This document shows positions 7,627 to 52,699 of a DNA stretch of 64,000 nt, one piece after another (position 1 is the first letter of the stretch; every line of letters begins with the position of its first letter). The notes under the pieces were generated by a model. That model was not told the DNA's origin and searched no databases. It was given only the letters and a program-made list of their open reading frames with translations. A program made the translations under genes and the position numbers. The stretch is taken from IMG/VR virus record IMGVR_UViG_3300020451_002055. One strand, written 5' to 3'. Source of the stretch: a virus. Taxonomy: Duplodnaviria > Heunggongvirae > Uroviricota > Caudoviricetes.

Positions 7627-7629
7627 AAT

Positions 7630-8157
7630 ATGGCTGGCGGATTCAATCCAATCAAAGTTCAGGTCATTGATGGGACATGCTCTATCTATGTCGATGATGT
7701 CCTAGTTGCGAGCTATAACTCAGAAGAGTTTACTCAAGACCCGGATAAAATCAAGCCTGTTCTCGGCGAGTTTGGCATAGAAAGAATCGATATGCCGCTC
7801 GGTCTTTATCTGCTCGATGGAAGATGCATATATGTCTTCCGTAAGACGCCGTACCGCTTTCTAGAAAATCGAAACATGAAGGCTACCTATGTCTACAAGT
7901 ATTTCGATATTGGTCGAGCAGCATGCACGGACAGCGCGATTCAAATCGGCACTCTTCTTGATACCGATTATGCACTGAAGCGAATGCTCAAGATCAATGA
8001 TGAGAATCAGCTTCGGCAGCTACTTATGATTCCAAAGATCATTCTTCGAACGCTAAAAAATCAACAATCGGCCATTGAGGAAGTGATCTCAATCATCGAC
8101 AACATTGAAAACCCGGAAACGGAAGAAGATACAGAGGAAACCGATGACAACAGCTAA
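7630..8157 (+). CDS. hypothetical protein between gyrB and gyrA
   Basis: 175 aa ORF tightly packed between the two subunit genes. Confidence 0.7.
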   Translation: MAGGFNPIKVQVIDGTCSIYVDDVLVASYNSEEFTQDPDKIKPVLGEFGIERIDMPLGLYLLDGRCIYVFRKTPYRFLENRNMKATYVYKYFDIGRAACTDSAIQIGTLLDTDYALKRMLKINDENQLRQLLMIPKIILRTLKNQQSAIEEVISIIDNIENPETEEDTEETDDNS

Positions 8158-16280: not shown

Positions 16281-17324
16281 ATGGGCTCAGGTAAACTACT
16301 AATAGCGACAGATGCTTGGCGTCCTCAAGTGAACGGAGTGGTCCGAACTTTAGAGGCTACAGCCTACGAAATGGACCTCAGGGGCTACAAAATTGAATAC
16401 TTTGAGCCCAGTATGTTCAAGAACTACCCATGTCCCAGCTACCCGGAGATACGCTTAGCTTTCGCTCCTGCATGTACGGTCAAGAGCATGATACGGAGCA
16501 TCCAGCCGGACTTCATTCATATTTCGACTGAGGGTCCGATCGGTATGGCCGTTCGTAACTATTGCGTGAATAATCGAGTCCCCTTTACAACATCTTATCA
16601 TACGCAGTTTCCCTTGTATCTCAAGAAGATAGCCAAGGTGCCTGAATGGGCTTCTTGGCGTTTCCTTAAATGGTTCCATGGAAAGTCTCAGTCTGTCTTG
16701 ACGCCATCGATAGACATGAAGACCGATCTTGAATCGCATGGGTTCAAGAATGTCATTCATTGGACCCGCGGAATTGATGAAGAGTTTGAGCCTCAAAAGG
16801 ACAATCCTTACGCTCCTTGCAACTTCCCGATCTTCCTCTATGTAGGAAGGGTCTCCAAAGAAAAGAACATCGAAGCCTTCCTTGAACTTCAAGAGAAGAT
16901 GGCTCCTGCGATGTTCTGGATCGTCGGAGACGGACCTCATAAGAAAGAGCTTGAAGAGAAGTATGCGAGCGACTATGTTCATTTCGTCGGTTACAAAGAA
17001 GGCGCTGAGCTAGCAGCCTACTACACGCATGCCGATGTATTCGTCTTCCCGAGCAAGACCGATACCTTTGGTCTTGTCAACATCGAAGCGTTGGCGTGCG
17101 GTACGCCTGTCGCTGCATTCCCATCGACCGGGCCGCTAGACATACTAGGTCGGGTAGGAAAGAATGACCCTCAATTAGGCTGCATGCATGAAGACCTCAA
17201 AACTGCTATGGAACAGGCGTTCCTGCATAGCAACTGTTCTGCTGCATGCAAAAGATTCGCGCGAGAGAACTACTCATGGGAAGCCGCGACGGATCAGTTT
17301 GAAAATGCTCTCGTCAAAATATGA
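16281..17324 (+). CDS. GT4 family glycosyltransferase
   Basis: TDAWRPQVNGVV, YVGRVSKEKN, DTFGLVNIEALACG. Confidence 0.92.
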   Translation: MGSGKLLIATDAWRPQVNGVVRTLEATAYEMDLRGYKIEYFEPSMFKNYPCPSYPEIRLAFAPACTVKSMIRSIQPDFIHISTEGPIGMAVRNYCVNNRVPFTTSYHTQFPLYLKKIAKVPEWASWRFLKWFHGKSQSVLTPSIDMKTDLESHGFKNVIHWTRGIDEEFEPQKDNPYAPCNFPIFLYVGRVSKEKNIEAFLELQEKMAPAMFWIVGDGPHKKELEEKYASDYVHFVGYKEGAELAAYYTHADVFVFPSKTDTFGLVNIEALACGTPVAAFPSTGPLDILGRVGKNDPQLGCMHEDLKTAMEQAFLHSNCSAACKRFARENYSWEAATDQFENALVKI

Positions 17325-18193
17325 AACTCAATCACTACAAAACATGCTGGATATCTGATCTTCACCTAGGTAGCGATAGTTCTGAAGCAGAAGTCGCTTA
17401 CAGGTTCCTTAAGGACAACTCGTTTGACAAGATATATCTTGTCGGCGATGTCATAGACATTTGGAGACTCAAGAAAGCCGGTTTTCTCCCAAGAAGAAAG
17501 GCTCAGTCTCACATCAACGTCGTCCAAAGACTACTGAAGCTATCTAAGAAAGGAACCGAGATTGTTTACCTCATTGGCAATCATGACGAGTTCATAGCAA
17601 ACTTCATCGAAGAGGATTCGAGAGAGTTCGGCAGCTTCATCGAACTTGCCGAAGAAGTTGAGCATGTCACGGCTGATGGCAAGAAGTATGTCGTTATGCA
17701 CGGACATCAGTTTGACCTGATTACGAGGTACAACCCTTGGCTTGCTAAGCTCGGCGATTCAGGATACCACTTCATGATCTGGCTCAACCGGCTCTACAAT
17801 AAGCTGAGACGCAAGATCGGCTTGAAGTATTGGTCTCTGAGCAAGTATATCAAGATCAACGTGAAAAAGGCGGTCAACTTCATAAGTCGGTTCGAAGAAA
17901 CAGCAGCAAGGTATGTTGAAGAGAAGGAATGCGACGGCATTATTTGCGGGCACATCCATGAACCGGCAGTCAAAAAGATTGACGATTGTTGGTATCTCAA
18001 CTGCGGGTGCTGGACAGATATCGCAAACTGTACCGCTCTAGTTGAGAGAGAAGACGGATCAATAGAACTGATCCAATGGACTGAGGACAATAATGAAGAA
18101 GTCATTGCGGGTACCCGATCCCGAGCCAGAGAAGAAAGCTTACATAGTAACTCACACGAGTCCAGGGAACGCTATGAGGAAGCTTGTGTCTAA
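17321..18193 (+). CDS. LpxH-like metallophosphoesterase
   Basis: SDLHLG, GDVID, GNHD, HGH, CGHIH motifs. Confidence 0.9.
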   Translation: MKLNHYKTCWISDLHLGSDSSEAEVAYRFLKDNSFDKIYLVGDVIDIWRLKKAGFLPRRKAQSHINVVQRLLKLSKKGTEIVYLIGNHDEFIANFIEEDSREFGSFIELAEEVEHVTADGKKYVVMHGHQFDLITRYNPWLAKLGDSGYHFMIWLNRLYNKLRRKIGLKYWSLSKYIKINVKKAVNFISRFEETAARYVEEKECDGIICGHIHEPAVKKIDDCWYLNCGCWTDIANCTALVEREDGSIELIQWTEDNNEEVIAGTRSRAREESLHSNSHESRERYEEACV

Positions 18194-29015: not shown

Positions 29016-29510
29016 ATGGGCTACAACTGGCAGAAGAAGATGATCATTTTGCGAGGACTACCCGGTTCGGGCAAGTCTACTCTCGCATCTGATATGTTCC
29101 ACAACAACTTCTTCGATCCTAGGGCTCAGGTCGATTACCTGGTCGAGGGCGATGACTACCGCACTGTTCAGGGCGAGTACCGATACGATCCCGATCAGAA
29201 CTTCCTCGCTCAGGCGTGGTGCTGCTCGGAAGCCTTTCGCAGACTGCAATCGCAAGACATCATCTTTGTCGCGAATGTTTTCGCCAAGCGAGAGCATATC
29301 TTTCCGTACCTCGAATGGGCTCGAAAGCTTGAAGTGCGGGTTCTTTTGGTTGAAACCTCGACGCCTTGGGCTCTCGACAAAGACCAGCTTGTCGAGAAGA
29401 ACGTGCATGATGTTCCGCTTGAGAGCATCGAACATATGATGGAATCATGGGAGGGCCTGTCTCAGGCCGAAGTCGAAGTTCTTGTTGGACATCCTTGGGA
29501 GACGCTATGA
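29016..29510 (+). CDS. P-loop kinase (AAA_33/polynucleotide kinase-like)
   Basis: ILRGLPGSGKST, GDDY, KNVHDVP. Confidence 0.8.
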   Translation: MGYNWQKKMIILRGLPGSGKSTLASDMFHNNFFDPRAQVDYLVEGDDYRTVQGEYRYDPDQNFLAQAWCCSEAFRRLQSQDIIFVANVFAKREHIFPYLEWARKLEVRVLLVETSTPWALDKDQLVEKNVHDVPLESIEHMMESWEGLSQAEVEVLVGHPWETL

Positions 29511-30499
29511 GCAGCAATGGAACCACTGGTCTTTCTATCTTCTCTGGCCGCAACTCCCAAGTCCTGACAAGGAGAGTTTGCGAAGCGATCGACCATCCGC
29601 TCGCGAACTCTGAAACCGAAGTCTTTCCCGATGGAGAGCTTCTGGTCAAAGTCAAAGAAGATGTCCGAGGTCGAGACTGCTTCATCGTCCTCTCGACATG
29701 CCAGCCATGCAACGACAACCTCGCAGAACTGCTGATCTTCGTTGACTGTCTCAAGCGAGCATCAGCAAGACAAGTTACTTGCGTCGTCCCTTACTACGGT
29801 TACGCTCGACAGGACCGGAAAGACAAGGGGCGAGTGCCGATTACGGCCAAGCTCGTTGCGAACCTGATTGCTGCATCCAACGCAGACCGAGTGGTTACAT
29901 GCGATCTGCATGCTGCCCAGATTCAAGGCTTCTTCGATATCCCTGTTGACCATCTGCATGCAACGCCCGTCTTCCATGATTACTTTCAGAGCATCCGAGA
30001 GCAACTCGGCGATCTTTGCCTTGTTTCTCCCGATGTCGGCAACGTCAAGGTTGCAGAAGGCTTTGCGAATCTGCTCGATGCTGACATCGCAATCATCAAC
30101 AAGAAGCGAATCAGCGGCACAAAGACAGAGGCCGCTCAGATCATCGGTAACGTTGAGGGCAAGAACATCCTCATGTTCGATGACATGATTTCGACGGCGG
30201 GCACTGTTCTCAATGCCGCCAGACTTGTTCGAGAGCATGGGGCAAAAGAGATTACGGTTGCCGCTACGCATCCGTTGCTTGCTGATCCTGCCATCGAGCG
30301 TCTTTCAGATGACCTGATTACTCGCGTCGTATGCACTGATACGATTCCTTCCGGAAATCGTCCTGATGTCATTGAGGGTCTTGGGAACAAGTACGTTGAA
30401 CTCTCCGTCTCTCGACTTCTTGGCGAAGCTATTGTTCGAGTTCATGAAGATCGCTCGATCAGCGAACTGTTCTCGGGCACGGCAGGCGTAAAGCGTTGA
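29507..30499 (+). CDS. prs: ribose-phosphate pyrophosphokinase
   Basis: FPDGE, PYYGYARQDRK, DLHAAQIQGFFD, VSPDVG, DDMISTAGT. Confidence 0.95.
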   Translation: MSSNGTTGLSIFSGRNSQVLTRRVCEAIDHPLANSETEVFPDGELLVKVKEDVRGRDCFIVLSTCQPCNDNLAELLIFVDCLKRASARQVTCVVPYYGYARQDRKDKGRVPITAKLVANLIAASNADRVVTCDLHAAQIQGFFDIPVDHLHATPVFHDYFQSIREQLGDLCLVSPDVGNVKVAEGFANLLDADIAIINKKRISGTKTEAAQIIGNVEGKNILMFDDMISTAGTVLNAARLVREHGAKEITVAATHPLLADPAIERLSDDLITRVVCTDTIPSGNRPDVIEGLGNKYVELSVSRLLGEAIVRVHEDRSISELFSGTAGVKR

Positions 30500-42573: not shown

Positions 42574-44061
42574 ATGGCTACCCCATTCAGGACCAGAATC
42601 CCTCGACTGACAGACTCATACAAGGTTTCCCATGCGGCTCAGTATCCAGACGGAACCTCCAAGGTATACAGCTACTTTGAGTCCCGAGGAGGCAAGTTCC
42701 CTGTTACTGGTCTTTTTGGCCTCCAATACATCCTCATGGCTTACCTCGAAGGCGAGGTAGCTACGCAGCGAGACATCAACCGAGATCAGCACTTTTTCGC
42801 TGCCCACTTCTTCGGGAATGGAGCCCTTCACAACAAGGCAGGTTGGCAGCGCATCGTCGATGTTCATGGCGGGCGACTGCCTGTCCGCATCATGGCGGCT
42901 CCCGAGGGAACGATCGCCCCGAACAGCAACGTCCTCTTCACCATCGAAAACCTCGATCCTCAACTCTACTGGTTGACCAATTACATCGAGTCGATCCTCC
43001 TGCATGCATGGTCGGCTTCTACCGTCATGACCGGCAGCCGCAACAGCAAGCAGATTCTCTTCAACGCTCTTGAGCGGTCTGGCGATCCTTCGGGCCTCCC
43101 GTTCAAGCTGCATGATTTTGGCTTCCGCGGCGTTTCGAGCGTCGAGACCGCTGCAACCGCTGGAGCGGCCCATCTTGTCAACTTCATGGGAACGGACACG
43201 CTCATCGCCTGCGATCTCATTGCTCAATACTATTCGGGTAAGCGACCCGAAGAAGTTGAAGCGATGAGCGATGACGAGTACGGTCGTTTCATCGCAGAGA
43301 ACATGGCCGGGCACTCCATTCCGGCGTCCGAGCATTCGACCATCACGACATGGGGCGAGGATGGGGAGATCGATGCATTCCGCAACATGCTCAAAGTCTA
43401 CCCGAGCGGTCTTGTTGCATGCGTCTCGGACTCTTGGGATATCGATCGAGCATGCAGCGAGCTTTGGCCCTCGCTCAAGGGCGAAATTGAAGCACGCGAC
43501 GGTCTTCTCGTTGTCCGTCCTGACTCTGGCGAGCCCACCGATGTTGTTCCTCGCATCCTTGGTCATCTCGCCGAGGGATTCGGATACACGACCAACAGCA
43601 AGGGCTTCAAGGTTCTGCATGATCAGGTCCGCGTCATTCAAGGCGACGGCATCGACTTCGACAGCATCTCGACCATCCTCGATGCGGTCATGGATGCAGG
43701 TTTTTCTGCCGACAACATTGCCTTCGGATCTGGCGGCGGACTGCTGCAGAAGGTCAACCGCGATACGCAGCGGGTTGCCATCAAGTGCAGCCATGCGATC
43801 ATCAATGGCGAAGAAACGGATGTTTTCAAGCGTCCGAAGACTGACCCGACAAAGGACAGCAAGCGAGGAAGGCTCGCTCTCGTTCAGACTCATGACGGCC
43901 TCGCTACGGTTCAGGAATCGGATGCCGACAATTACGCTGGCGGCAACCAGTTGATCGAGGTCTTCAACAACGGCGAGGTTTGCAACCTGCAGTCGTTCTC
44001 TGACATTCGTCGTCGGGCGGAACTTCCTGAGGTTGCTGAACTGTCTGCCGCTACTGCCTAA
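42574..44061 (+). CDS. nadV: nicotinamide phosphoribosyltransferase (NAMPT)
   Basis: TDSYKVSH..QYP, LHDFGFRG, PASEHS, VSDSWD, RPDSG, IQGDG, FGSGGGLLQ. Confidence 0.95.
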   Translation: MATPFRTRIPRLTDSYKVSHAAQYPDGTSKVYSYFESRGGKFPVTGLFGLQYILMAYLEGEVATQRDINRDQHFFAAHFFGNGALHNKAGWQRIVDVHGGRLPVRIMAAPEGTIAPNSNVLFTIENLDPQLYWLTNYIESILLHAWSASTVMTGSRNSKQILFNALERSGDPSGLPFKLHDFGFRGVSSVETAATAGAAHLVNFMGTDTLIACDLIAQYYSGKRPEEVEAMSDDEYGRFIAENMAGHSIPASEHSTITTWGEDGEIDAFRNMLKVYPSGLVACVSDSWDIDRACSELWPSLKGEIEARDGLLVVRPDSGEPTDVVPRILGHLAEGFGYTTNSKGFKVLHDQVRVIQGDGIDFDSISTILDAVMDAGFSADNIAFGSGGGLLQKVNRDTQRVAIKCSHAIINGEETDVFKRPKTDPTKDSKRGRLALVQTHDGLATVQESDADNYAGGNQLIEVFNNGEVCNLQSFSDIRRRAELPEVAELSAATA

Positions 44062-44083
44062 TCAACCTGACGGAGGCTCGCTG

Positions 44084-44818
44084 ATGGATAATGTCTTTCT
44101 CAAGAGCGTTCAGTCGTTCATTACTCGCTTCCCTGAAGGCAGGACTCCTTGCTCGTTCTTTGTGACAGGCGGAGGATTCAGTCTGCTCGACATCGGAAAG
44201 GTGCCGGGAGCAAGTAAGGTTTTGGCTGATGCGTACATTGCGTACCATATGCTCGAAGAGATTGCTGTCCTCAATACCGTTGTTGCGGATCATACCGACA
44301 AACTGACCAACGGAGACATCGGCTTCGTTTCTCCATGGACTACTTACTGGTATGCCCGAGCTATGATGGCTCGGCATGCTGCGACTATTCCTGATGCTAC
44401 GATTTGCGTTGTCAATGCGAGCCTGACAACTAATCGGTGGCGTCGAGGAAAGAATGAAGCTTTCTTTGCTGTTGTCAACAGACCAGTGGACAGCAAAGAC
44501 GGCGAAGTTCGCATGTTCAGACTCGATATGGATAAGCTTGAGGAGGACGAATACGCCCGAATCGAGCATCAACATCAAATCGCTTTGTCGGGTCTTTCAG
44601 ATCCGAGCCAAGCCCCTTTGCATCCGATCACACAACGCCGCGCCTTTGAAGATGAGAAGGTTGCTCAGGTTGCTATGGGACTTCTTCTTGAAGACCCAAC
44701 GCTCGTCCGCTTGATCGAGCATAGCGAAGCTGTCTATCCAATCGAGATTGAAGGCGATCCCACAAACCCCGAAAGCTTCGTCCCTCAGTTGGACGCGCCA
44801 TGGACAGCAAGGCCCTGA
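44084..44818 (+). CDS. CinA-like protein (N-terminal partner of NMN adenylyltransferase)
   Basis: VTGGG...VPGASK...RRG motifs. Confidence 0.55.
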   Translation: MDNVFLKSVQSFITRFPEGRTPCSFFVTGGGFSLLDIGKVPGASKVLADAYIAYHMLEEIAVLNTVVADHTDKLTNGDIGFVSPWTTYWYARAMMARHAATIPDATICVVNASLTTNRWRRGKNEAFFAVVNRPVDSKDGEVRMFRLDMDKLEEDEYARIEHQHQIALSGLSDPSQAPLHPITQRRAFEDEKVAQVAMGLLLEDPTLVRLIEHSEAVYPIEIEGDPTNPESFVPQLDAPWTARP

Positions 44819-44819
44819 T

Positions 44820-45464
44820 ATGCCCAAGATGACGCTCGAACAAGCCCATGCTCGCGTTCAGCGAGACTCCCTCTTTGCCTTCGTCTACGACGACGGCTTT
44901 GCTCAGCCGGTCTACGACCTTGAGGCCCCCTGGGTCGAGCGAGAGGTTCATTTGCTGCCCGGCAGCTTCAATCCGATCCATCGAGCCCATGAAGCGATGT
45001 TCGAGCAGATGCGAAGGAACGGCATCTACGCAGCCTACGAGATCAGCATGGAGCGGATCGACAAGGAGTTCCTGACCTACGAAGAACTGCAGGCACGACT
45101 TGTTCAGTTCAACGGTAAGGGTCCGGTCCTTGTTGACCGCTGGCCCTACTTCATGCAGAAAGCGGGTATCCTCCGCAACTGGAACCTGACTTTCCATGTC
45201 GGCGTTGATACTGCCATCCGGCTTGTCGAGTCTCATGGGATTGCCGGAATCCAAGGAATTGCGGCTGATTTCGTCGTCTACGACCGCATTTGGGAAAACA
45301 GACGGCAAGGCCTCGGAAGCTGCATGGTCTTCGCCAACCGGACTCCCTCGAACTTTCGACCCGGCAATACGCCTGATGAGACTCTTCTCGGGTTGTCTTC
45401 TACTGCTATCCGGGCGGGTCATCAGACCCCGGACGGCAGAGCAATCGCCTCAGCGACCAACTGA
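44820..45464 (+). CDS. NMN/NaMN adenylyltransferase-like (HxGH family)
   Basis: LPGSFNPIHRAH, VGVDT, LSSTAIR. Confidence 0.8.
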   Translation: MPKMTLEQAHARVQRDSLFAFVYDDGFAQPVYDLEAPWVEREVHLLPGSFNPIHRAHEAMFEQMRRNGIYAAYEISMERIDKEFLTYEELQARLVQFNGKGPVLVDRWPYFMQKAGILRNWNLTFHVGVDTAIRLVESHGIAGIQGIAADFVVYDRIWENRRQGLGSCMVFANRTPSNFRPGNTPDETLLGLSSTAIRAGHQTPDGRAIASATN

Positions 45465-45495: not shown

Positions 45496-45523
45496 TTGAC
45501 AACCGCCGCAAGGCGGTTATTCT
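45496..45523 (+). promoter_or_regulatory. sigma70-type promoter of RNA cluster
   Basis: TTGACA-16 nt-TATTCT; spacer is a palindrome ACCGCC GCAA GGCGGT. Confidence 0.65.
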
Positions 45524-45859
45524 TTGACCTCATGCCCTCGGTTGGGCATACGAAACGGAGTAGACTATGCGACCCGCCAACGACATCCCGAACCCCGCCA
45601 AGGGGACAGGGCCGTGCCTTGAAAAAGGCACAGTCGGCGTTGATCGCGCCTCCGTCGATAGCAGCGATCAACTCTGATACCTGCTCCCCTCCGACCAAAA
45701 ATCTGGTAAAGCTTGAAGGATTTTTCGCAGCTTTGCGTGAATCCTTACGCTACCCCTCAACTTCATGACGAAGTATAGGGACCGACGCAGCGACCTACCA
45801 ATCGCTTAGTCAGAGACAAATACTGATCAGCAGGTGAAAGCCTGGTTTGGTATATTGCA

Positions 45860-45923
45860 GTTTGGGTTGAAGAATCAAGGTTATCTTGACAATGGCTCCT
45901 TGGTTCAACTCCCTTACCCAAAC
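45860..45923 (+). ncRNA. minimal Y RNA-like element 1
   Basis: GTTTGGGT-TGA-A-GAATCAAGG-TTATC...CCTTGGTTC-AACTCC-CTT-ACCCAAAC. Confidence 0.7.
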
Positions 45924-45928
45924 GTCAT

Positions 45929-46002
45929 CAGAGTGTAGCTCAGTTTGGCAGAGCGTCTGGTTCGGGGCCAGAAGGCCGGAGGTTCAAATCCTCTCACTCT
46001 GA
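45929..46002 (+). tRNA. tRNA-Pro(CGG)
   Basis: CAGAGTG/CACTCTG, TCTGG-TTCGGGG-CCAGA. Confidence 0.92.
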
Positions 46003-46227
46003 CTTTTGAAAACTGAATAAAGGACGAAGTATGGATGCAAAGAGAGCATTGTTAGACGTAGCAGACCGGGCACTAACTCATCAGTTCATCATGTCGAAAA
46101 GACTGAAACCGGGTGAGTTCCTAGAACGGTATACTACGGCAGAAGAACGAGAAGCTTTGAAAGGCCTCAGGAGTGAGGACGCTCAAAGCCCTCTAAGACA
46201 CATGCTTGATTTGTATCGATGAACGTA

Positions 46228-46387
46228 GGAGGTTTGGGCAGTAAGTTGCGATGAGAACCGTTGCGATCCGGGGACTTGAGAGACTTACCTCTCCCCGGTC
46301 GAGACACCCCACATCGGCTGGCACGTTGCTCAACAGTTCGTTGGAAGTCGAGGTTTGGATACCTCGATAGACCAGCCTCAAACCTCC
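46228..46387 (+). ncRNA. candidate structured ncRNA
   Basis: Closing helix GGAGGTTTGGG/CTCAAACCTCC with internal hairpins; no + strand ORF in the track. Confidence 0.5.
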
Positions 46388-46605
46388 ACAACATAAGGAT
46401 CAGATGATGCTTGGAAGCCTCATTAGCAAAGACACCGAAAGGCAGATCGCCGTAGCAGTTCGAGCGGCGAGCCTCGCTAAGGCAGCAGAATCTCTCGCAG
46501 TTGCGTCATCCAATGTCGCAGCCGCAGACGAGCGTCTCGCTCAAGACCTTCGGGTCACAGTCGGTCGTTTGCATGATGAAGTCAAAAGCCTCATCTGATC
46601 CTAGA

Positions 46606-46679
46606 CAGGGCGTAGCTCAGCTTGGTAGAGCGTCTGGTTTGGGACCAGAAGGCCGCACGTTCGAATCGTGTCGCCCTGA
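46606..46679 (+). tRNA. tRNA-Pro(TGG)
   Basis: CAGGGCG/CGCCCTG, TCTGG-TTTGGGA-CCAGA. Confidence 0.92.
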
Positions 46680-46683
46680 TTGA

Positions 46684-46887
46684 ATGGCAAGTATTTGTTC
46701 GAAACATCAAGAGTATGATCCGGATTGCGATCTATGCAAAGTAGACCTTTCTGATAGTCCTCTGTTTCAACAAATGCATGCCGAAGCAGAAGCAGCAGGC
46801 ACGCATGTCTGCGAGGAATGCAAGTTCCTCTATTACAAGACTGTCGATTCATGTCCGCTCTGCGGTCATCGACGGATTGACAACTGA
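46684..46887 (+). CDS. small Zn-finger protein
   Basis: CxxH/CxxC and CEEC..CPLC motifs. Confidence 0.6.
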   Translation: MASICSKHQEYDPDCDLCKVDLSDSPLFQQMHAEAEAAGTHVCEECKFLYYKTVDSCPLCGHRRIDN

Positions 46888-46890
46888 ATA

Positions 46891-47049
46891 GACTTTTGAT
46901 CTGTAGGAACCTGTTTAGGCAGGGAAATAAGGCCGGTATTACCAAACCTCGGTACACGGTCGCGAGCCTGAGGAAGGCAAGCCTGTCGGAGTAAGCTCCC
47001 GATTCTGTCCAAGAGTAAGAGGTTGTGAGGACGAGCAGATCAAGCAGTC
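46891..47049 (+). ncRNA. candidate structured ncRNA
   Basis: Closing helix GACTTTTGATCTG/CAGATCAAGCAGTC, starts right after TTGACAACTGAATA motif. Confidence 0.45.
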
Positions 47050-47078
47050 TACGGGATAAAACCCGTCTACTGCTTTCA

Positions 47079-47138
47079 TGGGCTGAAGAGTCAAGGTTAA
47101 CTTGGTAATGTTGCACCCTTGCCTCACTAACTTGCCCA
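47079..47138 (+). ncRNA. minimal Y RNA-like element 2
   Basis: TGGGC-TGA-A-GAGTCAAGG-TTAAC...CCTTGCCTC-ACTAA-CTT-GCCCA. Confidence 0.7.
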
Positions 47139-47151
47139 GACAATCAAAGAT

Positions 47152-47222
47152 CGGACTGAAGAATAGAAGGTTAACTTCAATTTTGATTTGAAACCCAACA
47201 CCCTTCATTCACTCCTTGTCCG
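47152..47222 (+). ncRNA. minimal Y RNA-like element 3
   Basis: CGGAC-TGA-A-GAATAGAAGG-TTAAC...CCTTCATTC-ACTC-CTT-GTCCG. Confidence 0.7.
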
Positions 47223-47230
47223 TTCTTGTT

Positions 47231-47359
47231 AGCGACGTAGCTCAATTGGTAGAGCGCCTAAAAGGTCTTCAACCAACGCCTTACCCGGCACGGGTTGATG
47301 GAATTGAAGGTTATCGCATGTGGAGCGGGAGGTTGCAGGTTCGAGTCCTGTCGTCGCGA
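47231..47359 (+). ncRNA. tRNA-shaped RNA with Y-like stem in anticodon arm (A)
   Basis: Acceptor GCGACG/CGTCGC, D arm, T arm; insert CTT-ACCCG GCA CGGGT-TGA...GGTTATC. Confidence 0.8.
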
Positions 47360-47377
47360 TTGAAAAACTGAATACAA

Positions 47378-47502
47378 CGCAACGTAGTTTAACGGCAAAA
47401 CACCTAAACATCGTTGTCCGCCCCTTACCCGATTCGGGTTGATGGAATTGACGGTTATCCTCTATCAAAGGGGTGATCCAGGTTCGAATCCTGGCGTTGC
47501 GT
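47378..47502 (+). ncRNA. tRNA-shaped RNA with Y-like stem in anticodon arm (B)
   Basis: Acceptor CGCAACG/CGTTGCG, D arm GTTT/AAAC, T arm; insert CTT-ACCCG ATT CGGGT-TGA...GGTTATC. Confidence 0.8.
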
Positions 47503-47523
47503 TTGAAAACTGAATAGACTTTT

Positions 47524-47626
47524 ACGGGTTGAATGCAATCGTTTATCGTTGGTTCAAGTCCAATCGCCGTTCTGCGGCGTAGCCCCAACTCAGGCGAGGG
47601 GCATTCGAGAGCAGTACCTTACCCGT
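47524..47626 (+). ncRNA. YrlA-type Y RNA (T arm, loop-closed acceptor stem, D arm inside terminal stem)
   Basis: ACGGGT-TGA...TTTATC-GTTGG TTCAAGT CCAAT-CGCCG TTCTG CGGCG-TA-GCCCC..GGGGC...CTT-ACCCGT. Confidence 0.8.
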
Positions 47627-47630
47627 TTTT

Positions 47631-47761
47631 CGTGCAGTAGCTCAACAGGTAGAGCGGCAGTCAAAAAGGTCCATGACCGATTTGCTTGCTCGTTTCGAGT
47701 TGAAGGTTGATGGTTATCTATCGCAAAACTGCTTGTGGAGGTTCGAGTCCTTCCTGCACGA
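47631..47761 (+). ncRNA. tRNA-shaped RNA with Y-like stem in anticodon loop (C)
   Basis: Acceptor CGTGCAG/CTGCACG, anticodon stem GCAGT/ACTGC; insert CTT-GCTCG TTT CGAGT-TGA...GGTTATC. Confidence 0.8.
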
Positions 47762-47764
47762 CTT

Positions 47765-47836
47765 CGCGGAGTGGAGAAGTAGTAACTCGCTTGGCTCATA
47801 ACCAAGAGATCGGTGGTGCAAATCCATCCTCCGCTA
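47765..47836 (+). tRNA. tRNA-Met(CAT), initiator-like
   Basis: C1:T72 mismatch, CTTGG-CTCATAA-CCAAG. Confidence 0.85.
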
Positions 47837-47847
47837 TTTTGAACATT

Positions 47848-48109
47848 GCAGGCGATTCTGCGATCGCCGGTTAGGGTAAGATGCACGCAGCAGAAGGTTC
47901 CTAGGGATACCGAAGTGCGTCCGGCGGCAAAGAGAACGCAGAACTCTACCGTCGAGACGAGGACACATCTGCTAGAGAGCCAGGTGGGGAATCTGGTTGT
48001 AATGTTCAGAAGCATGACGAGCCGCTTGCGAGACGCAAGGGTTTCTGCAGAGATCGGACCGATCCTAGGCAAATCCTAGGGGTAGGCCCCAAACAGGAGT
48101 ATCGCCTGT
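47848..48109 (+). ncRNA. candidate large structured ncRNA (~260 nt)
   Basis: Closing helix GCAGGCGAT/ATCGCCTGT; hairpins CTTGCG AGA CGCAAG and CCTAGG CAAAT CCTAGG. Confidence 0.5.
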
Positions 48110-48181
48110 TCTCGTCATTTCAACATACCCGGTTGACCTCTACCTGAAAGGGATACGTCAATAATGGCCGGGTTTACATTT

Positions 48182-48255
48182 GGGGATGTAGCTCAATTGA
48201 GTAGAGTGCCCGCCTGTCTAGCGGGTGGTTGAGGGTTCGAGTCCCTTCATCCTCG
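48182..48255 (+). tRNA. tRNA-Asp(GTC)
   Basis: GGGGATG/CATCCTC, CCCGC-CTGTCTA-GCGGG. Confidence 0.9.
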
Positions 48256-48268
48256 TTTGCCCAACTTT

Positions 48269-48340
48269 GGGGCGTTAGTTTAATCGGGAAAACCCCAGAC
48301 TGTCGATCTGGAATAGCGGGATCGAAACCCGCACGCCTCG
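48269..48340 (+). tRNA. tRNA-Asp(GTC)
   Basis: GGGGCGT/ACGCCTC, CCAGA-CTGTCGA-TCTGG. Confidence 0.85.
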
Positions 48341-48731
48341 TTCTTACTCAGGAGACTCGCAATGGACAATACCCCATTCTACAAACGATCCGCCTTCTGG
48401 AAAGGCGTTGCGTTTGGAGTCGTTGCCGGATTCCTCTTCGTGTTCCTTGCATGAAAGTGAAGAAGTCTTCCGATATCCTATGACATCGGCTACTCCGTAA
48501 CGATCTGCAACGCGGAGGTGCAAGCGAGGCTGAGGTAATCAGGAGGAACCTCGCTTGTAAAAGTCGCTGATTTGATTGAAGGTGCAGACAGTTGCTCGGC
48601 TAGGGACGCCTAAGTCGCCATCGGATGAAAGGGCCGGAAGCAGCTTTTCGTGAATCAGTAATGCTGGTTCTTAGTTGTTGACGAAACGACTGTAGCGACC
48701 TACCAATCGCTGCACATTTTGGGATTGAGCA

Positions 48732-49244
48732 ATGCTGCTCGACAGTCTTAGGCCAACTCAATGCGGTCTTCGATACGTTGATCAGATTGCAAGCATGGTC
48801 GAGTTTGTCCGATCAGGCGGTGTCTTCTCGCAAGAAGCTCTGCTGAGGTTTGCGGAGGCAAACAATCATGAGCCGGACAACCTCATTCAGGTTCGTCGGT
48901 TTGAGGATGGGACTCACTTTATCCATGACGGGCACCATAGATGCCTTTCGATCTGGCTTGCCGGACGAGAGAACCTTGATGCCCAAGAATTTGATTTGTC
49001 TATCTGGCATTACCACCAGTATGGAGAGATCAACTTTGATGCGGGTTATGTGACACCACATGACCCGAGAGAAGAAACCCGATACGCCGACTTCTTTGGA
49101 TTCAAGTCGGAAGCTCGGAAGATTGCAGAAACTTCGGTCGAAGAAGCGATCGAGTTCATCAGAGGAAACAGGTCTCGTTACTGCGAGCCGCGGACCTGTT
49201 GGCATGTAAGAGATTTGGCCGCAACCTTGCCTCTAAGAGGCTGA
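48732..49244 (+). CDS. ParB/Srx-like domain protein
   Basis: LRPTQ ... FIHDGHHR motif. Confidence 0.7.
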   Translation: MLLDSLRPTQCGLRYVDQIASMVEFVRSGGVFSQEALLRFAEANNHEPDNLIQVRRFEDGTHFIHDGHHRCLSIWLAGRENLDAQEFDLSIWHYHQYGEINFDAGYVTPHDPREETRYADFFGFKSEARKIAETSVEEAIEFIRGNRSRYCEPRTCWHVRDLAATLPLRG

Positions 49245-49262
49245 AAGAAGGAGGATCGAAAG

Positions 49263-50933
49263 ATGGCATACACGAAGCACTTCAGCGCAAAGAAGACCCC
49301 GCAGAACGTCCCGACTCCGGGGAAGAACCAGAAGAAGAACAACGCGGGCGGTTACGTCTATGAGATCACTCCTTGGGATCGCTTGCAGCGATTCCTGATC
49401 CTAGGCTCCGAGGGCGGCTCGTACTACGTCGGCGAGCGTAAGCTCACCGTCGATAACGCGAACTGCGTAATCGATTGCCTCAAGGAGGACGGTCGTCGCG
49501 TCGTGGACATGATCGTGGAGATTTCGGATGCGGGTCGCGCCGCTAAGAACACTCCGGCTCTGTTCGCGCTGGCTCTCGCTGCATCGGCGGATGAGCTTGA
49601 GACCCGCAAGTACGCGCTCGCAAACCTCTCGAAGGTTGCGCGTATCGGTACTCACCTCTTCGAGTTCGCGCAGTTCGTCAACCAGTTCCGTGGTTGGGGT
49701 CGTAACCTCAAGGAGTCGATCGCTAACTGGTACCTTGACATGGACGCAGAGCGTCTGGCCTACCAGGTCGTCAAGTACCCGCAGCGCACGACCGAGGAGG
49801 GCGACAGCCTGTCGGTATGGTCGCACCGCGACCTGCTCCGTAAGGTCCGCCCGAGCAACGTCAAGGGAGATCACAACAAGATCTTCGGCTATGTAACTCA
49901 GGGATGGGACACCATCCCGAGCCGTAGCCCGAAGGCTTTGCAGATCATCCGCGGAACCGAGAAGATCAAGCGAGCAAAGAGCGCAGATGAGGCCGCAGGT
50001 CTCATCGAGGAGTTCTCGTTGCCGCACGAGGTTGTTCCGAAGGAGTTCTCGGGAGATCCGAAGGTTCTCACCGCCCTCCTGCAGAGCATGCCGTTGACTG
50101 CGACGATGCGTAACCTTGGTCGCTTGACCGCGCGAGGCGTTCTTGTCCCGATGGGCAAGGAGACCTCGATGGTTATCGATCGCCTGACGGATGAGGACTA
50201 CATCCGCAAGAGCAGGATCCACCCGATCAACGTTCTTGCGGCTCTGAAGACCTACTCGCAGGGCTCAGGTCACCGCGGAAGCATGTCTTGGCAGCCGATT
50301 CAGCCGATCGTCGATGCTCTCGACTCGATGCTCTACAAGAGCTTCGGGAACATCGAGCCGACCGGCAAGAAGATTCTCATTGCCCTCGATGTTTCGGCGT
50401 CGATGGACTGGGACGGCTGCTCGGGCTTGAGCCAGATTACTCCGCGCGAGGCTTCGGCTGTCATGTCCATGGCAACCGCTCGCGTTGAGAAGAACTACCA
50501 CATCGTCGCTTTCTCAAGCGGCGGTTGGTCGAGAGGCTCGGGCCGTAGTCGCTACGGTTGGGGCTCGGGTATCCAGGATGTGGCGATCTCGCCTCGTCAG
50601 CGTTTGGACTCGGTAGTTAGCACCGTTTCTAGCCTGCCAGCAGGCGGAACCGACTGCGCTTTGCCGATGCTCTACGCTACCGAGAAGGGAATGGACATCG
50701 ACGCATTCGTTGTCTACACGGACAACGATACCTGGGCAGGAGACATCCACGCGGATCAGGCACTCAGAGAGTACCGCCGAAAGTTCAACCCGGAGGCGAA
50801 GCTCATTGTTGCCGGAACCGCATCGACCGAGTTCTCGATCGCTGACCCGAGCGATCCGGGCATGCTCGATGTTGTCGGATTCGACTCGTCGGCTCCGAGC
50901 GTCATCTCCTCGTTCATTCGAGGCATGGACTAA
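49263..50933 (+). CDS. rsr: Ro60 (TROVE + vWA) RNA-binding protein
   Basis: NNAGGYVY, RLQRFLILGSEGGSYY, WSHRDLLR, RNLGR, SRIHP, MIDAS DVSASM, GGTDC, YTDNDTW, MLDVVGFDS. Confidence 0.96.
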   Translation: MAYTKHFSAKKTPQNVPTPGKNQKKNNAGGYVYEITPWDRLQRFLILGSEGGSYYVGERKLTVDNANCVIDCLKEDGRRVVDMIVEISDAGRAAKNTPALFALALAASADELETRKYALANLSKVARIGTHLFEFAQFVNQFRGWGRNLKESIANWYLDMDAERLAYQVVKYPQRTTEEGDSLSVWSHRDLLRKVRPSNVKGDHNKIFGYVTQGWDTIPSRSPKALQIIRGTEKIKRAKSADEAAGLIEEFSLPHEVVPKEFSGDPKVLTALLQSMPLTATMRNLGRLTARGVLVPMGKETSMVIDRLTDEDYIRKSRIHPINVLAALKTYSQGSGHRGSMSWQPIQPIVDALDSMLYKSFGNIEPTGKKILIALDVSASMDWDGCSGLSQITPREASAVMSMATARVEKNYHIVAFSSGGWSRGSGRSRYGWGSGIQDVAISPRQRLDSVVSTVSSLPAGGTDCALPMLYATEKGMDIDAFVVYTDNDTWAGDIHADQALREYRRKFNPEAKLIVAGTASTEFSIADPSDPGMLDVVGFDSSAPSVISSFIRGMD

Positions 50934-50958
50934 CCCTCAGAGACAACTCTGATACAAA

Positions 50959-50995
50959 CAAAGGGGCTTCCCGTTAGGGAGGCCCCTTTTTTTTT
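50959..50995. terminator. bidirectional intrinsic terminator
   Basis: AAAAGGGGCTTCC/GGAGGCCCCTTTT hairpin with T run between convergent genes. Confidence 0.88.
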
Positions 50996-50998
50996 CAA

Positions 50999-52699
50999 TT
51001 ACCCTAGAGCATCATTCCTAAAGAACTCAACAATGTCTGCCGGGTCAGAAGGCATAATGCCTCGTAGAAGATTCTCCACAAGGTCGCTGCCATAAACATC
51101 TGTCATCTTAGGAGCATTGTAGCTGATCTGCTCGTTTCCGCTGCTTTGGAAATCATTTGCATCAACGCTATTGCCTCCTCCTGTTCTTCGATAGATGCCT
51201 CCGAACTCATCGCCGAGGCCGTCTTCTCCTAGGTCGTACTTGTTGTCCGCGACAACAAGATTTCCATTGACCTCGGACGAGAACAATACAAGCGAGCCGT
51301 ATCCTGCAACAATGTTTCCGCTGATGGTTACGGTTGCGTTACCAGGGGCATCGTTATCGTACTCAAGACCTCGATTCTGTCCGGTTCCATCAGAGATGAT
51401 GACGTTGTTCTTCATCTCGGATGGCTGATCAACAGGTCTTAGATGCAGAGCCCAGTTTCTACGCTCCTTATTATTGATGTTCTCGCCTTCGATAACTAGG
51501 TTGTTGTTACAGATGCCTCGACAATCCATATCTCCGGCCTCCCTAATGGCTTCCGGCGAGCCAACAAAAGCTCCGAGACCGTTTGCATGGAAGACATTGT
51601 TCTCTAGGACGCCGCCAGAGCGAAGCTGAATGCCGTGACTACCGTTTCGATAGCAGTAGTTGTTGCGGAAAATGATGGGCTGACCTCTGTCAGGACGATC
51701 GTCGCACCAATACTGAGTATAGATGCCATGACTATAGATAGAAGCATTAGCTCTGTCATCGTCTCTAACATCAGCAGGTAGCTGAGCCTGTATTGGGGGA
51801 TGCCAGGTCGTAAAGCCGTTCAACGCAACGATGTTGTATTCGAAGATGATACCTCGAACGCCGTTGAAGTAGCCGCCCTGCGATCTTGCTGCGTGTCGAT
51901 CCGGATCGTCTGCACCATCAATGGCCCGACCGTTTCCGTTTCTAGCTATGACGCATCCGCCAACGTAAAGATTCTCGTACCATTCGTTGTTGTTCTTGGC
52001 TTTGCCGCCATTGTCGATAACAAAGCCATCCATGAACCATTGAATGTCAAGGTCTTCGAATCTGACGTTGAGACCCTTATCTACAATAGAGACTCCCTTA
52101 CCTCTAAACTCAGAGCCTTGCTTCGGGCGGAAACGGATACCGGAAATGAGAGCGTTCTCGCAGTATCCCTTTCCATTGCCGACCATTGACATAACCGTCT
52201 TACCTTCTTCTTCGGGTCTGATTGTAGGTCTGTTGCCTGATCCGTATCTACCGAAGATAGCTGGCTTGTTTGGATTGCTTGACTGAAGAAACTGTCCCCA
52301 GCCCCAGAATGTATCTCTTGTATTGATAAGGTACTCTCCGCCTGCTTGTAGCAGGAGAGCAGGTATTTTACCGTTGCCTCTAGCTTGTTTTGCTTGCTCG
52401 ACAAACGGAGTGATGTTTACAGGCGAACTCTGAGCTTCAACCCGAATGACCTCGTAATCCGAATCGCTTAGATCGATGCTCTGCAAAAGCGGCTCAAAGC
52501 CAGTCGAAGGTGGCGGTGGAGGAGGGGGAGGTGGCGGTGGAGGAGGGGGAGGAGGTTGGCATGGGACCGAAGGCGGGTAGTTACACCTTGACTGGCATGC
52601 CGAGTTGCCAACATTCTTTAGCAAACTCAACGAAGCTGCATTCAGTCCATTGAGTGCGCGGTAAAACTCAGCAGAATACTGCTCTAGTTCATCACTCAT
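50999..52699 (-). CDS. right-handed beta-helix protein with poly-Pro(16) linker; possible virion depolymerase
   Basis: Repeated I.ENN/NG/HGIY beta-helix motifs; Pro run at 52508-52555. Confidence 0.7.
   Translation of the reverse strand: MSDELEQYSAEFYRALNGLNAASLSLLKNVGNSACQSRCNYPPSVPCQPPPPPPPPPPPPPPPPSTGFEPLLQSIDLSDSDYEVIRVEAQSSPVNITPFVEQAKQARGNGKIPALLLQAGGEYLINTRDTFWGWGQFLQSSNPNKPAIFGRYGSGNRPTIRPEEEGKTVMSMVGNGKGYCENALISGIRFRPKQGSEFRGKGVSIVDKGLNVRFEDLDIQWFMDGFVIDNGGKAKNNNEWYENLYVGGCVIARNGNGRAIDGADDPDRHAARSQGGYFNGVRGIIFEYNIVALNGFTTWHPPIQAQLPADVRDDDRANASIYSHGIYTQYWCDDRPDRGQPIIFRNNYCYRNGSHGIQLRSGGVLENNVFHANGLGAFVGSPEAIREAGDMDCRGICNNNLVIEGENINNKERRNWALHLRPVDQPSEMKNNVIISDGTGQNRGLEYDNDAPGNATVTISGNIVAGYGSLVLFSSEVNGNLVVADNKYDLGEDGLGDEFGGIYRRTGGGNSVDANDFQSSGNEQISYNAPKMTDVYGSDLVENLLRGIMPSDPADIVEFFRNDALG

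Follow-up and report, generated by a model that had tools for sequence, protein, structure and literature searches.

Conservation of Ro60 and its Y RNAs extends from bacteria to humans, and in lupus and Sjögren syndrome Ro60 is a major autoantigen, while the role of the variable parts of Y RNAs and the origin of these RNAs are standing questions. Xenopus Ro60 contacts the GGUCCGA strand of its Y RNA, the corresponding bacterial motif is GNCGAAN0-1G (PMC4201824), and the 5' end of human Y4 reads GGUC-CGA-U-GGUUAGUGG-GUUAUC (PMC5331234). Thermus phage phiLo has a Ro60 that binds two Y-like RNAs encoded upstream of it as well as host polynucleotide phosphorylase (PNPase) (PMC12135203). Phage Ro60 proteins with several Y RNAs and the tRNA mimicry of the Y RNA class YrlA are both already known. 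Here we analyze a 64,000-nt stretch of Caudoviricetes DNA (IMG/VR record IMGVR_UViG_3300020451_002055; hereafter the window), in which a single phage operon on the plus strand, at ~45.5-51.0 kb, would encode tRNAs, seven Y-type noncoding RNAs (E1-E7), a ParB-like protein, and Ro60. We consider it likely that these RNAs belong to one operon and share a Ro60 docking module that is wired in three different ways, with tRNA-type processing, docking on Ro60, and feedback through the Ro60 leader.

As the sequence-only reading of this DNA had proposed, a Ro60 gene lies ~1.5 kb past the last element. Its product matches Pfam TROVE (2e-30) and vWA_Ro60 (1e-58), and residues 20-554 align to the human, Xenopus, and Deinococcus structures (PDB 9nen, 1yvp, and 2nvo; E = 1e-108 to 1e-115), with the DVSASM MIDAS motif present and aligned. 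K171 and R175 (KYPQR), both invariant in 18 relatives, align with Xenopus K170 and R174 (KYKQR), which are reportedly used in Y RNA binding. Judged by these end-to-end alignments, the gene encodes a full-length Ro60. The comparison set consisted of 14 metagenome loci and 11 IMG/VR loci (L numbers below), fetched by alignment-based scans with Ro60, and the Ro60 relatives show 45-77% identity. A single-protein Ro60 scan of viral contigs retrieved no relatives, and the sole homologue among GTDB genomes was a 38%-identical bacterial Ro60. Several of the related loci sit on IMG/VR viral contigs of 370-498 kb, which supports a phage origin and indicates that the clade is one of huge phages.

The seven elements all lie on the plus strand where the sequence-only reading had placed them, 1.5-3.4 kb 5' of Ro60, and they share one module. 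One strand consists of helix 1 (5-8 bp), TGA, an A or T, helix 2 (~9 bp, with an occasional bulge), and G(G/T)TTA(T/A)C; the opposite strand consists of helix 2', a linker of 4-6 nt, CTT, and helix 1'. The sequence of helix 1 varies among the elements and its pairing is always kept, the helix pairs listed earlier (GGGT/ACCC, GGGC/GCCC, GGAC/GTCC, and CGAGT/GCTCG) being correct by sequence. This layout matches the published site of animal Y RNAs (GGUCCGA / CUUGACC, then GUUAUC), and the field lengths of human Y4 equal those of E7 (CGAGU-UGA-A-GGUUGAUGG-UUAUC). The layout and both strands of the Y RNA site occur in 7/7 elements, but every window copy reads GNUGAA, whereas the relatives carry the canonical CGA. 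Since both strands are conserved, the module appears closer to animal- or Deinococcus-type Ro sites than to Salmonella YrlA, and it would be a phage version of the former, with a 9-bp helix followed by UUAWC.

Ro60 very probably docks on the shared helix and its UGA/CUU region, a prediction that draws on the published layout, covariation, and synteny. This part of the original proposal stood, while its extension of the Ro60 site to GGTTAWC did not: that motif is placed at the distal end of helix 2 and does not occur in a further copy of the module in the Ro60 leader, so it is unlikely to be a Ro60 contact and is more probably a junction or an element for a second partner. The TGA/CTT region had also been described as an internal loop. 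By analogy with Xenopus Y3, we would instead read its U as bulged and its G and A as paired (G-U and A-U), with an asymmetric loop after them.

The module occurs in the three topologies that the sequence-only reading had distinguished, as judged by sequence, ARAGORN, and the Rfam tRNA model. E1-E3 are stem-only RNAs of 60-71 nt with poorly conserved apical loops, in which the ends of the module would be the ends of the RNA. The module ends of E6 would also be RNA ends, with a permuted tRNA at the apex; its parts follow the order open Ro stem, T arm (GUUGG UUCAAGU CCAAU), acceptor hairpin with a 5-nt loop, UA, and D arm, the same circularly permuted tRNA order that YrlA carries (preprint 10.1101/312249). 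In E4, E5, and E7, a triloop-capped module would replace the anticodon end of an otherwise complete tRNA. These elements have open acceptor stems of 6-7 bp, canonical D and T arms, and a Ro arm with a 3-nt loop in place of the anticodon arm; E4, for example, consists of an open acceptor stem, D arm, Ro arm (CUU ACCCG gca CGGGU UGA, cap GCA), V hairpin, and T arm. In E4 and E5, the module and a small V hairpin come after a short closing stem, an arrangement also seen in YrlA, while the 65-nt Ro arm of E7 (cap UUU) is enclosed by a 5-bp anticodon stem, GCAGU/ACUGC.

Covariance models (CMs) were built for the open and the capped form of the module. Model R1 (open form) had an eight-sequence seed in which E2 was the sole window member, and a search of 225 kb on both strands returned 19 elements, all on the Ro60 strand and 5' of Ro60, with a twentieth, marginal match on the minus strand (E = 0.85). 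R1 recovered E1 (E = 6e-5) and E3 (3e-3), neither of which was in the seed. In the CM alignment, compensatory changes were found at 14/17 pairs, and 90% of cells paired compared to 36-47% when the strands were slid by 1-3 columns; the hand-checked seed gave 13/17 pairs and 92%. Model R2 (capped form) yielded 16 clear matches, with compensatory changes at 9/13 pairs and 82% paired compared to 28-46% slid. Because the R2 seeds included window elements, the model was rebuilt from relatives alone (R3) and run over the whole window on both strands. Four matches were obtained at E <= 10, namely E5 (2.4e-5), E4 (4e-3), E7 (0.05), and the leader hairpin (4.3, not significant alone), and R1-R3 gave no further window matches at E <= 1.

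Across 370 kb of related loci, all R1 and R2 matches were on the Ro60 strand except the marginal one, and they lay within ~3.5 kb of Ro60 (up to ~6 kb in L014), 5' of the gene in phage loci and 3' of it in L033. Mixed arrays were present 5' of Ro60 in at least 12 related loci, and six further viral loci carried R1 and R2 matches <=1.5 kb 5' of Ro60. The covariation and the association with Ro60 elsewhere that had been anticipated were thus both found, and models built from the stems did locate elements beside other Ro60 genes; no element reaches the threshold of the Rfam model for YrlA. Module, covariation, and synteny together support reading the elements as Y-type RNAs, in three connectivities, that belong to the Ro60 next to them. 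RNAalifold predicted no structure on raw MAFFT alignments because linker lengths shift the register, and a trimmed seed with CM realignment was used instead; a loose regular expression with a helix descriptor was too permissive (88 matches per shuffled set) and was kept out of the statistics; and the exact pattern CTTACCCGNNNCGGGTTGA had 7 matches in IMG/VR, all of them chance occurrences inside unrelated sequence.

The module could in principle be read by a protein other than Ro60, such as the ParB-like protein or a host factor, with the nearness of Ro60 reflecting only co-location in a tRNA region. In the window and some relatives, a ParB-like gene does separate the RNAs from Ro60, and its C-terminal coding sequence is kept 5' of Ro60 in L017, L018, and L019. 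However, L012, L024, and L028-L030 have no ParB-like sequence directly 5' of Ro60 and nevertheless keep the RNAs and the leader hairpin, in the bacterial locus whose Ro60 is 38% identical, two capped tRNA-shaped elements come immediately after the gene, and the R1 and R3 searches found no Y-like elements near the nine other tRNA genes of the window, which are clustered at 21-38 kb. Given that the module also fits the published Ro60 site, we regard a different reader as highly improbable.

The tRNA-shaped elements are recognized to different extents by tRNA-finding programs. ARAGORN in intron mode calls E4, E5, and E7 plus at least 12 counterparts in relatives, whereas the Rfam tRNA model (RF00005, gathering threshold 29) gives E7 49.4 bits with a 65-nt insert, also scores L019c and one bacterial example above threshold, and does not report E4 or E5. 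One could accordingly take E4, E5, and E7 for working tRNA genes with short introns, of 34-51 nt in ARAGORN and supported for E7 by its Rfam score, and the Y-like sequence for merely a splicing or processing signal. The anticodons assigned in this way are, however, inconsistent at the same place in relatives (gga, tat, atc, atg, cta, caa, and others), and several of them derive from the UUAUC motif. No seven-nt anticodon loop with a consistent anticodon is present; a Ro arm of 50-65 nt replaces the loop rather than interrupting it, and the same insert is free-standing as E1-E3. To our knowledge, tRNA introns in bacteria and phages are solely self-splicing group I introns of 200 nt or more, which likewise counts against introns here. 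Inconsistent anticodons, loop replacement, free-standing copies, and the end-to-end homology of permuted E4 to YrlA led us to reject the intron-containing tRNA reading, to which we assign a very small probability.

With regard to YrlA, only E6 has its connectivity; E4, E5, and E7 are a circular permutation of it, and E1-E3 have no tRNA-like body. When E4 was re-opened at its cap and its acceptor ends were joined, 95 of ~130 columns were identical to the YrlA of Microbacterium phage SM23, with z = 17.8 against shuffles compared to 8.5 for unpermuted E4. The tRNA-shaped RNAs are therefore YrlA homologues in which the break has moved.

The real RNAs could alternatively be canonical YrlAs that span tandem units, with helix 1 forming between neighbors and the acceptor strands plus spacer making a closed arm. 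E4 and E5 have identical helix 1 sequences (ACCCG/CGGGU), the 3' acceptor strand of E4 pairs with the 5' strand of E5 at 5/6 positions, and the sole, weak match of the Rfam YrlA model falls on their junction (47327-47407). In such a fold, however, the first (5') half of E4 and the last (3') half of E5 would have nothing to pair with, RNase P would cut each acceptor stem, and the spacer TTGAAAACTGAATA also occurs 3' of ordinary tRNAs. Moreover, neighboring capped elements of L021 and L014 differ in their helix 1 and acceptor sequences, so that pairing must take place within each element, and like these tandem pairs E7 can pair only internally. We consider cross-unit folding quite unlikely, and it is formally possible for the E4/E5 pair alone.

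In the cultured actinophages SM23, Cashline, and ScottMcG, the capped form was not found and only canonical YrlA was present, which the Rfam YrlA model scores at 36-42 bits. A Capsulimonadaceae metagenome-assembled genome (L033, the locus with the 38%-identical Ro60) has two capped tRNA-shaped elements directly 3' of the gene, and the form is therefore not confined to phages. Chen et al. (2014) discarded matches overlapping tandem tRNAs (PMC4201824); this filter and the canonical-only actinophages may be why earlier work overlooked the tRNA-topology form.

Other notable RNAs occur in the related loci. The element at L021 6777-6902 is a tRNA-shaped Y RNA that has a capped Ro arm and also retains an entire anticodon arm (loop CUCAUAA, anticodon CAU); it is partly called as tRNA-Met by ARAGORN and could represent a form intermediate between tRNAs and Y RNAs. 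After the two capped elements of L033, positions 7003-7060 read GGGC-CGA-C-AGACCCGGG-UUAUC fused to GTAACTATAACGGTCCTAAGGTAGCGA, which we take to be a conserved 23S rRNA segment containing the I-CeuI site, and the whole may be a Y-like RNA whose attached module mimics rRNA. Open Y RNAs of greater length (124-185 nt), with large apical modules that are not tRNA-like, are found at L018 6336-6520, L021 5812-5985, L012 7504-7627, and L014 1268-1417; each precedes a tRNA, and the window has open reading frames (ORFs) at the syntenic place. Directly after the L014 RNA is a tRNA-Pro(UGG)-like gene with a D-loop insertion of ~43 nt (1430-1540). In SM23, an annotated "hypothetical protein" coding sequence and a "tRNA-Asn" overlap Y RNAs and are probably mis-annotations.

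An eighth copy of the predicted docking site is located in the Ro60 leader. Positions 49226-49245 read CUU GCCUC uaa GAGGC UGA A, with the Shine-Dalgarno sequence AGAAGGAGG next to it, and the Ro60 ATG lies 17 nt past the leader UGA, which doubles as the stop codon of the ParB-like ORF (49242-49244). The order hairpin, CGA, A or U, and Shine-Dalgarno sequence is found 5' of Ro60 in at least 10 relatives, with stems of 8-10 bp and unrelated sequences. Over 11 loci, the YGA lies 17-35 nt ahead of the start codon, compensatory changes affect 7/10 pairs, and 91% of cells are paired compared to 28-49% slid. Helix 1, its bulge, and the GA/UU region are all present in the leader copy and UUAWC is not, which argues that helix 1 and the bulge, rather than GGTTAWC, form the Ro60 contact.

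The position of this predicted docking hairpin on the Ro60 ribosome-binding site suggests autoregulation, in which free Ro60 would bind the leader copy and limit its own translation, and Ro60 would thus be titrated against its Y RNAs. Autogenous operators that mimic the main RNA ligand of a protein are known from E. coli thrS and from ribosomal-protein operons. As in thrS-type operators, a reduced copy of the protein's RNA site lies at the ribosome-binding site of its own mRNA, while repression by Ro60, in contrast, is only inferred, and our literature search gave no Ro60 case. In SM23 (L034 2712-2785), a YrlB-like open element lies directly 5' of the Ro60 start, and its 3' strand overlaps the Shine-Dalgarno sequence.

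The identity of the bulge base separates the window from its relatives. The base is U in 8/8 window sites (the seven RNAs and the leader) and C in 59/59 sites of relatives (30 open, 19 capped, and 10 leaders), 57 of which read CGA, in a comparison that leaves out the closest Ro60 relatives (P0002-P0005, 73-77% identity); the elements syntenic to E1 in L017 and L018 read CGA. CpG depletion was considered as a cause of a CGA to TGA change and rejected, as the observed/expected CpG ratio of the window is 1.08 and CGA is commoner than TGA. That eight separate sites changed together points to one common reader, most simply Ro60, and the window Ro60 has changes at positions conserved in CGA-type relatives (R150K, H196R, Y251F, W269L, P274Q, S298G, and E489D). 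We tentatively suggest, while considering it doubtful, that Ro60-Y RNA recognition was naturally re-coded here through the C-to-U change at eight sites together with the Ro60 substitutions, possibly making the set orthogonal to CGA-type sets of the host or a co-infecting phage, and that the locus may show an origin of Y RNAs from tRNAs by tandem duplication and permutation.

The arrangement of the elements suggests how they may be processed. Of 34 open elements, 17 end 2-9 nt 5' of the 5' end of a tRNA or tRNA-like element, and most of the others are followed by a further open element or by a tRNA-like one missed by ARAGORN. This spacing suggests that RNase P makes the 3' ends of the open form: tRNA-processing enzymes would excise the Y RNAs from a tRNA transcript, with RNase P cutting at the 5' end of the next tRNA. 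E6 ends 4 nt ahead of E7, and E1 ends 5 nt ahead of tRNA-Pro(CGG), where an RNase P cut at the tRNA 5' end would produce the E1 3' end. The 5' end of E1 may be fixed by a candidate promoter, the block AGCAGGTGAAAGCC...TATATT; AGCAGGTGAAAGCC is kept, with a TATA-like hexamer next to it, 5' of the syntenic elements in L017 and L018, although this comparison was made by eye and is weak. The tRNA-shaped forms would be trimmed by RNase P plus RNase Z or exonucleases; the YrlA of M. smegmatis is processed by RNase P and has CCA added to it.

Once processed, all seven RNAs would dock on the outer face of Ro60. Their tRNA-like bodies would bring Ro60 to partners that recognize tRNAs, or let Ro60 pose as a tRNA look-alike, in the service of RNA quality control or repair during infection. 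The phiLo precedent, together with the RNA ligase, phosphoesterases, SpoU methylase, and NAD-salvage genes of the window, supports a role in RNA decay or repair. The earlier description of the RNAs as interchangeable adaptors would fit the tRNA-like forms better than the stem-only ones. The tRNA-shaped RNAs might instead be mainly decoys for tRNA-targeting nucleases or toxins, or mark complexes for Ro60-linked decay, given that they keep acceptor, D, and T features without an anticodon loop in a window rich in genes of RNA-repair type (RNA ligase and phosphoesterases) and counter-defense type (NAD salvage). This idea is purely inferential, and anticodon nucleases need the very loop that is missing; we think it unlikely as the main function, but a decoy role would be compatible with Ro60 docking and is not exclusive of it.

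Several observations weigh against the model of seven Y RNAs docking on Ro60 through one module. The window sites deviate from the published motif by U for C, so that binding should not be assumed from the motif alone. The Rfam Y_RNA model (RF00019) has no match in 45500-51200 at E <= 10 and none in five related loci at E <= 1, and the Rfam YrlA model (RF02553, gathering threshold 69 bits) has the E4/E5 junction as its sole match, at 23.4 bits, with none for E6. The end of the Y helix is opened by Xenopus Ro60 (PMC12135203), and the capped form could dock in another way. The identical helix 1 and similar acceptor strands of E4 and E5 make a cross-element YrlA-like fold possible, the leader stem of the window has only 5 bp, and the stem-only RNAs, having no conserved apical module, look like plain Ro60 ligands rather than adaptors.

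The features of the locus are listed in Table 1. From 45.8 to 51.0 kb, the plus strand carries, in order, E1, tRNA-Pro(CGG), a small ORF, a conserved non-coding block, a second small ORF, tRNA-Pro(UGG), a zinc-finger-like small ORF, another conserved non-coding block, E2-E7, tRNA-Met, a structured spacer of ~260 nt, two tRNA-Asp genes, the ParB-like ORF, and the Ro60 ORF.

Table 1. Features of the Ro60 locus, in window coordinates.
Feature	Position	Strand	Basis or detail
Promoter-like site TTGACA-16-TATTCT, possible operon start	45496-45523	+	Consensus scan only, weak
Second block, AGCAGGTGAAAGCC, 8 nt, TATATT, a few bases 5' of E1	45829-45856	+	
E1, predicted open stem-only Y RNA	45860-45923	+	8-bp helix 1, UGA, A, 9-bp helix 2, UUAUC
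tRNA-Pro(CGG)	45929-46003	+	ARAGORN, Rfam
E2, predicted open stem-only Y RNA	47079-47138	+	UGGGC/GCCCA; R1 seed, 66.6 bits
E3, predicted open stem-only Y RNA	47152-47222	+	CGGAC/GUCCG; ends 9 nt 5' of E4
E4, predicted tRNA-topology Y RNA	47232-47358	+	ARAGORN intron mode; R3; permuted YrlA alignment
E5, predicted tRNA-topology Y RNA, Ro arm cap AUU	47379-47501	+	ARAGORN; R3
E6, predicted YrlA-topology Y RNA, open Ro stem ACGGGU/ACCCGU	47524-47626	+	Sequence and fold
E7, predicted tRNA-topology Y RNA	47631-47761	+	Rfam tRNA; ARAGORN; R3
ParB/Srx-like ORF directly 5' of Ro60	48732-49244	+	Weak Pfam ParBc_2 match (0.007), below cut-off
Putative Ro60-leader docking hairpin, eighth site	49226-49254	+	Covariation over 11 loci; R3 E = 4.3
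Ro60, TROVE HEAT-repeat ring and vWA domain, 556 aa	49263-50933	+	Pfam, structure-sequence alignment
Intrinsic terminator, 13-bp stem then T run, closing the operon	50960-50989	+	

Some non-coding sequences between these features recur or are conserved. The motif TTGA(A/C)AACTGAATA occurs at 46006-46019, 46877-46890, and 47503-47516, with a variant carrying an extra A at ~47360-47374, and it trails tRNA-Pro, a small ORF, E4, and E5 (3 exact matches compared to 0.1 expected). Similar TTGACAATT(A/G)AATA blocks lie 3' of tRNAs in L017, L018, and L014, and the motif could act in processing or as a promoter specific to the phage. The non-coding block of ~190 nt before E2 (46890-47075) closely matches L021 6090-6245 (for example, ...GGCAAGYCTGTCGGRGTAAGCTCCCGATTCTGTCCAAGAGTAAGAGGTTGTGAGGACG); it has no Rfam match and is a candidate structured RNA. 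The non-coding segment at 46235-46400, with a hairpin CCGGGGA...TCCCCGG, is kept in L017 (2020-2160) between two tRNA-Pro genes and has no Rfam match either. The spacer between tRNA-Met and tRNA-Asp (47849-48108) belongs to no Rfam family and contains no Ro-site motif by R1-R3, and L017 (3060-3290) and L021 (6470-6680) are non-coding there too.

Elsewhere in the window are genes for a SpoU methylase (938-1606), a metallophosphoesterase (17321-18193), an RNA ligase (PF09414, 24159-24794), a phosphoribosyl pyrophosphate (PRPP) synthetase (29447-30499), and NAMPT with a weak cytidylyltransferase-like ORF (42574-45464), so that RNA-repair and NAD-salvage genes are interleaved with tRNA genes across the window; T4-like topoisomerase II subunits are encoded at 5725-10603.

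In Rfam and the literature covered (Chen 2014, the YrlA structure preprint, the phiLo paper, and full-text searches), we found no description of Y RNAs with tRNA topology, of arrays linked to tRNAs, of a leader mimic, or of a UGA variant. The particular value of the locus is that it presents the full set of topologies side by side together with the C-to-U switch. One Ro60 with seven predicted ligands that differ only in their cargo or in its attachment to the same docking helix offers a compact natural comparison, and with its eight switched sites the locus already supplies a test of Ro60 specificity. The tRNA-topology form links YrlA directly to ordinary tRNAs and suggests that Y RNAs may be matured by the tRNA-processing machinery, while the leader copy would offer Ro60 a means to control its own synthesis. 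For annotation, such elements would otherwise be missed or called odd tRNAs.

Among the known systems, phiLo is like the window in having a phage Ro60 with several upstream Y-like RNAs; its RNAs were recognized by a CGAA motif, and binding and a PNPase complex were shown there (PMC12135203). It has two open RNAs, and neither a tRNA-topology form nor a leader mimic is reported for it, compared with the seven RNAs in three topologies and the leader copy known here from sequence. YrlA RNAs (RF02553; PMC4201824) lie on the Ro60 strand within 4 kb of Ro60, as the window elements do, and like E4-E7 they combine a Ro-binding stem with a tRNA-like body that has D, T, and acceptor arms. The parts of E6 are connected as in YrlA, but the connectivity of E4, E5, and E7 is the opposite, with the acceptor open and the Ro stem capped. 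In addition, the YrlA motif is GNCGAA rather than GNUGAA, and only the 5' Ro strand is recognizable in the YrlAs of Salmonella and M. smegmatis, whereas both strands are conserved in the window.

E1-E3 resemble minimal Y RNAs or YrlB. Animal Y RNAs (RF00019) and Deinococcus Yrn1 share with the window elements a terminal helix, a bulged pyrimidine, GA opposite UU, an asymmetric loop, and a 9-bp upper helix followed by (G)UUAUC. The bulged base of animal Y RNAs is C rather than U, and the Rfam model of that family does not match here. Finally, animal Y RNAs are separate Pol III units, whereas the RNAs of the window apparently come from a tRNA operon, some of them as capped arms inside tRNAs.

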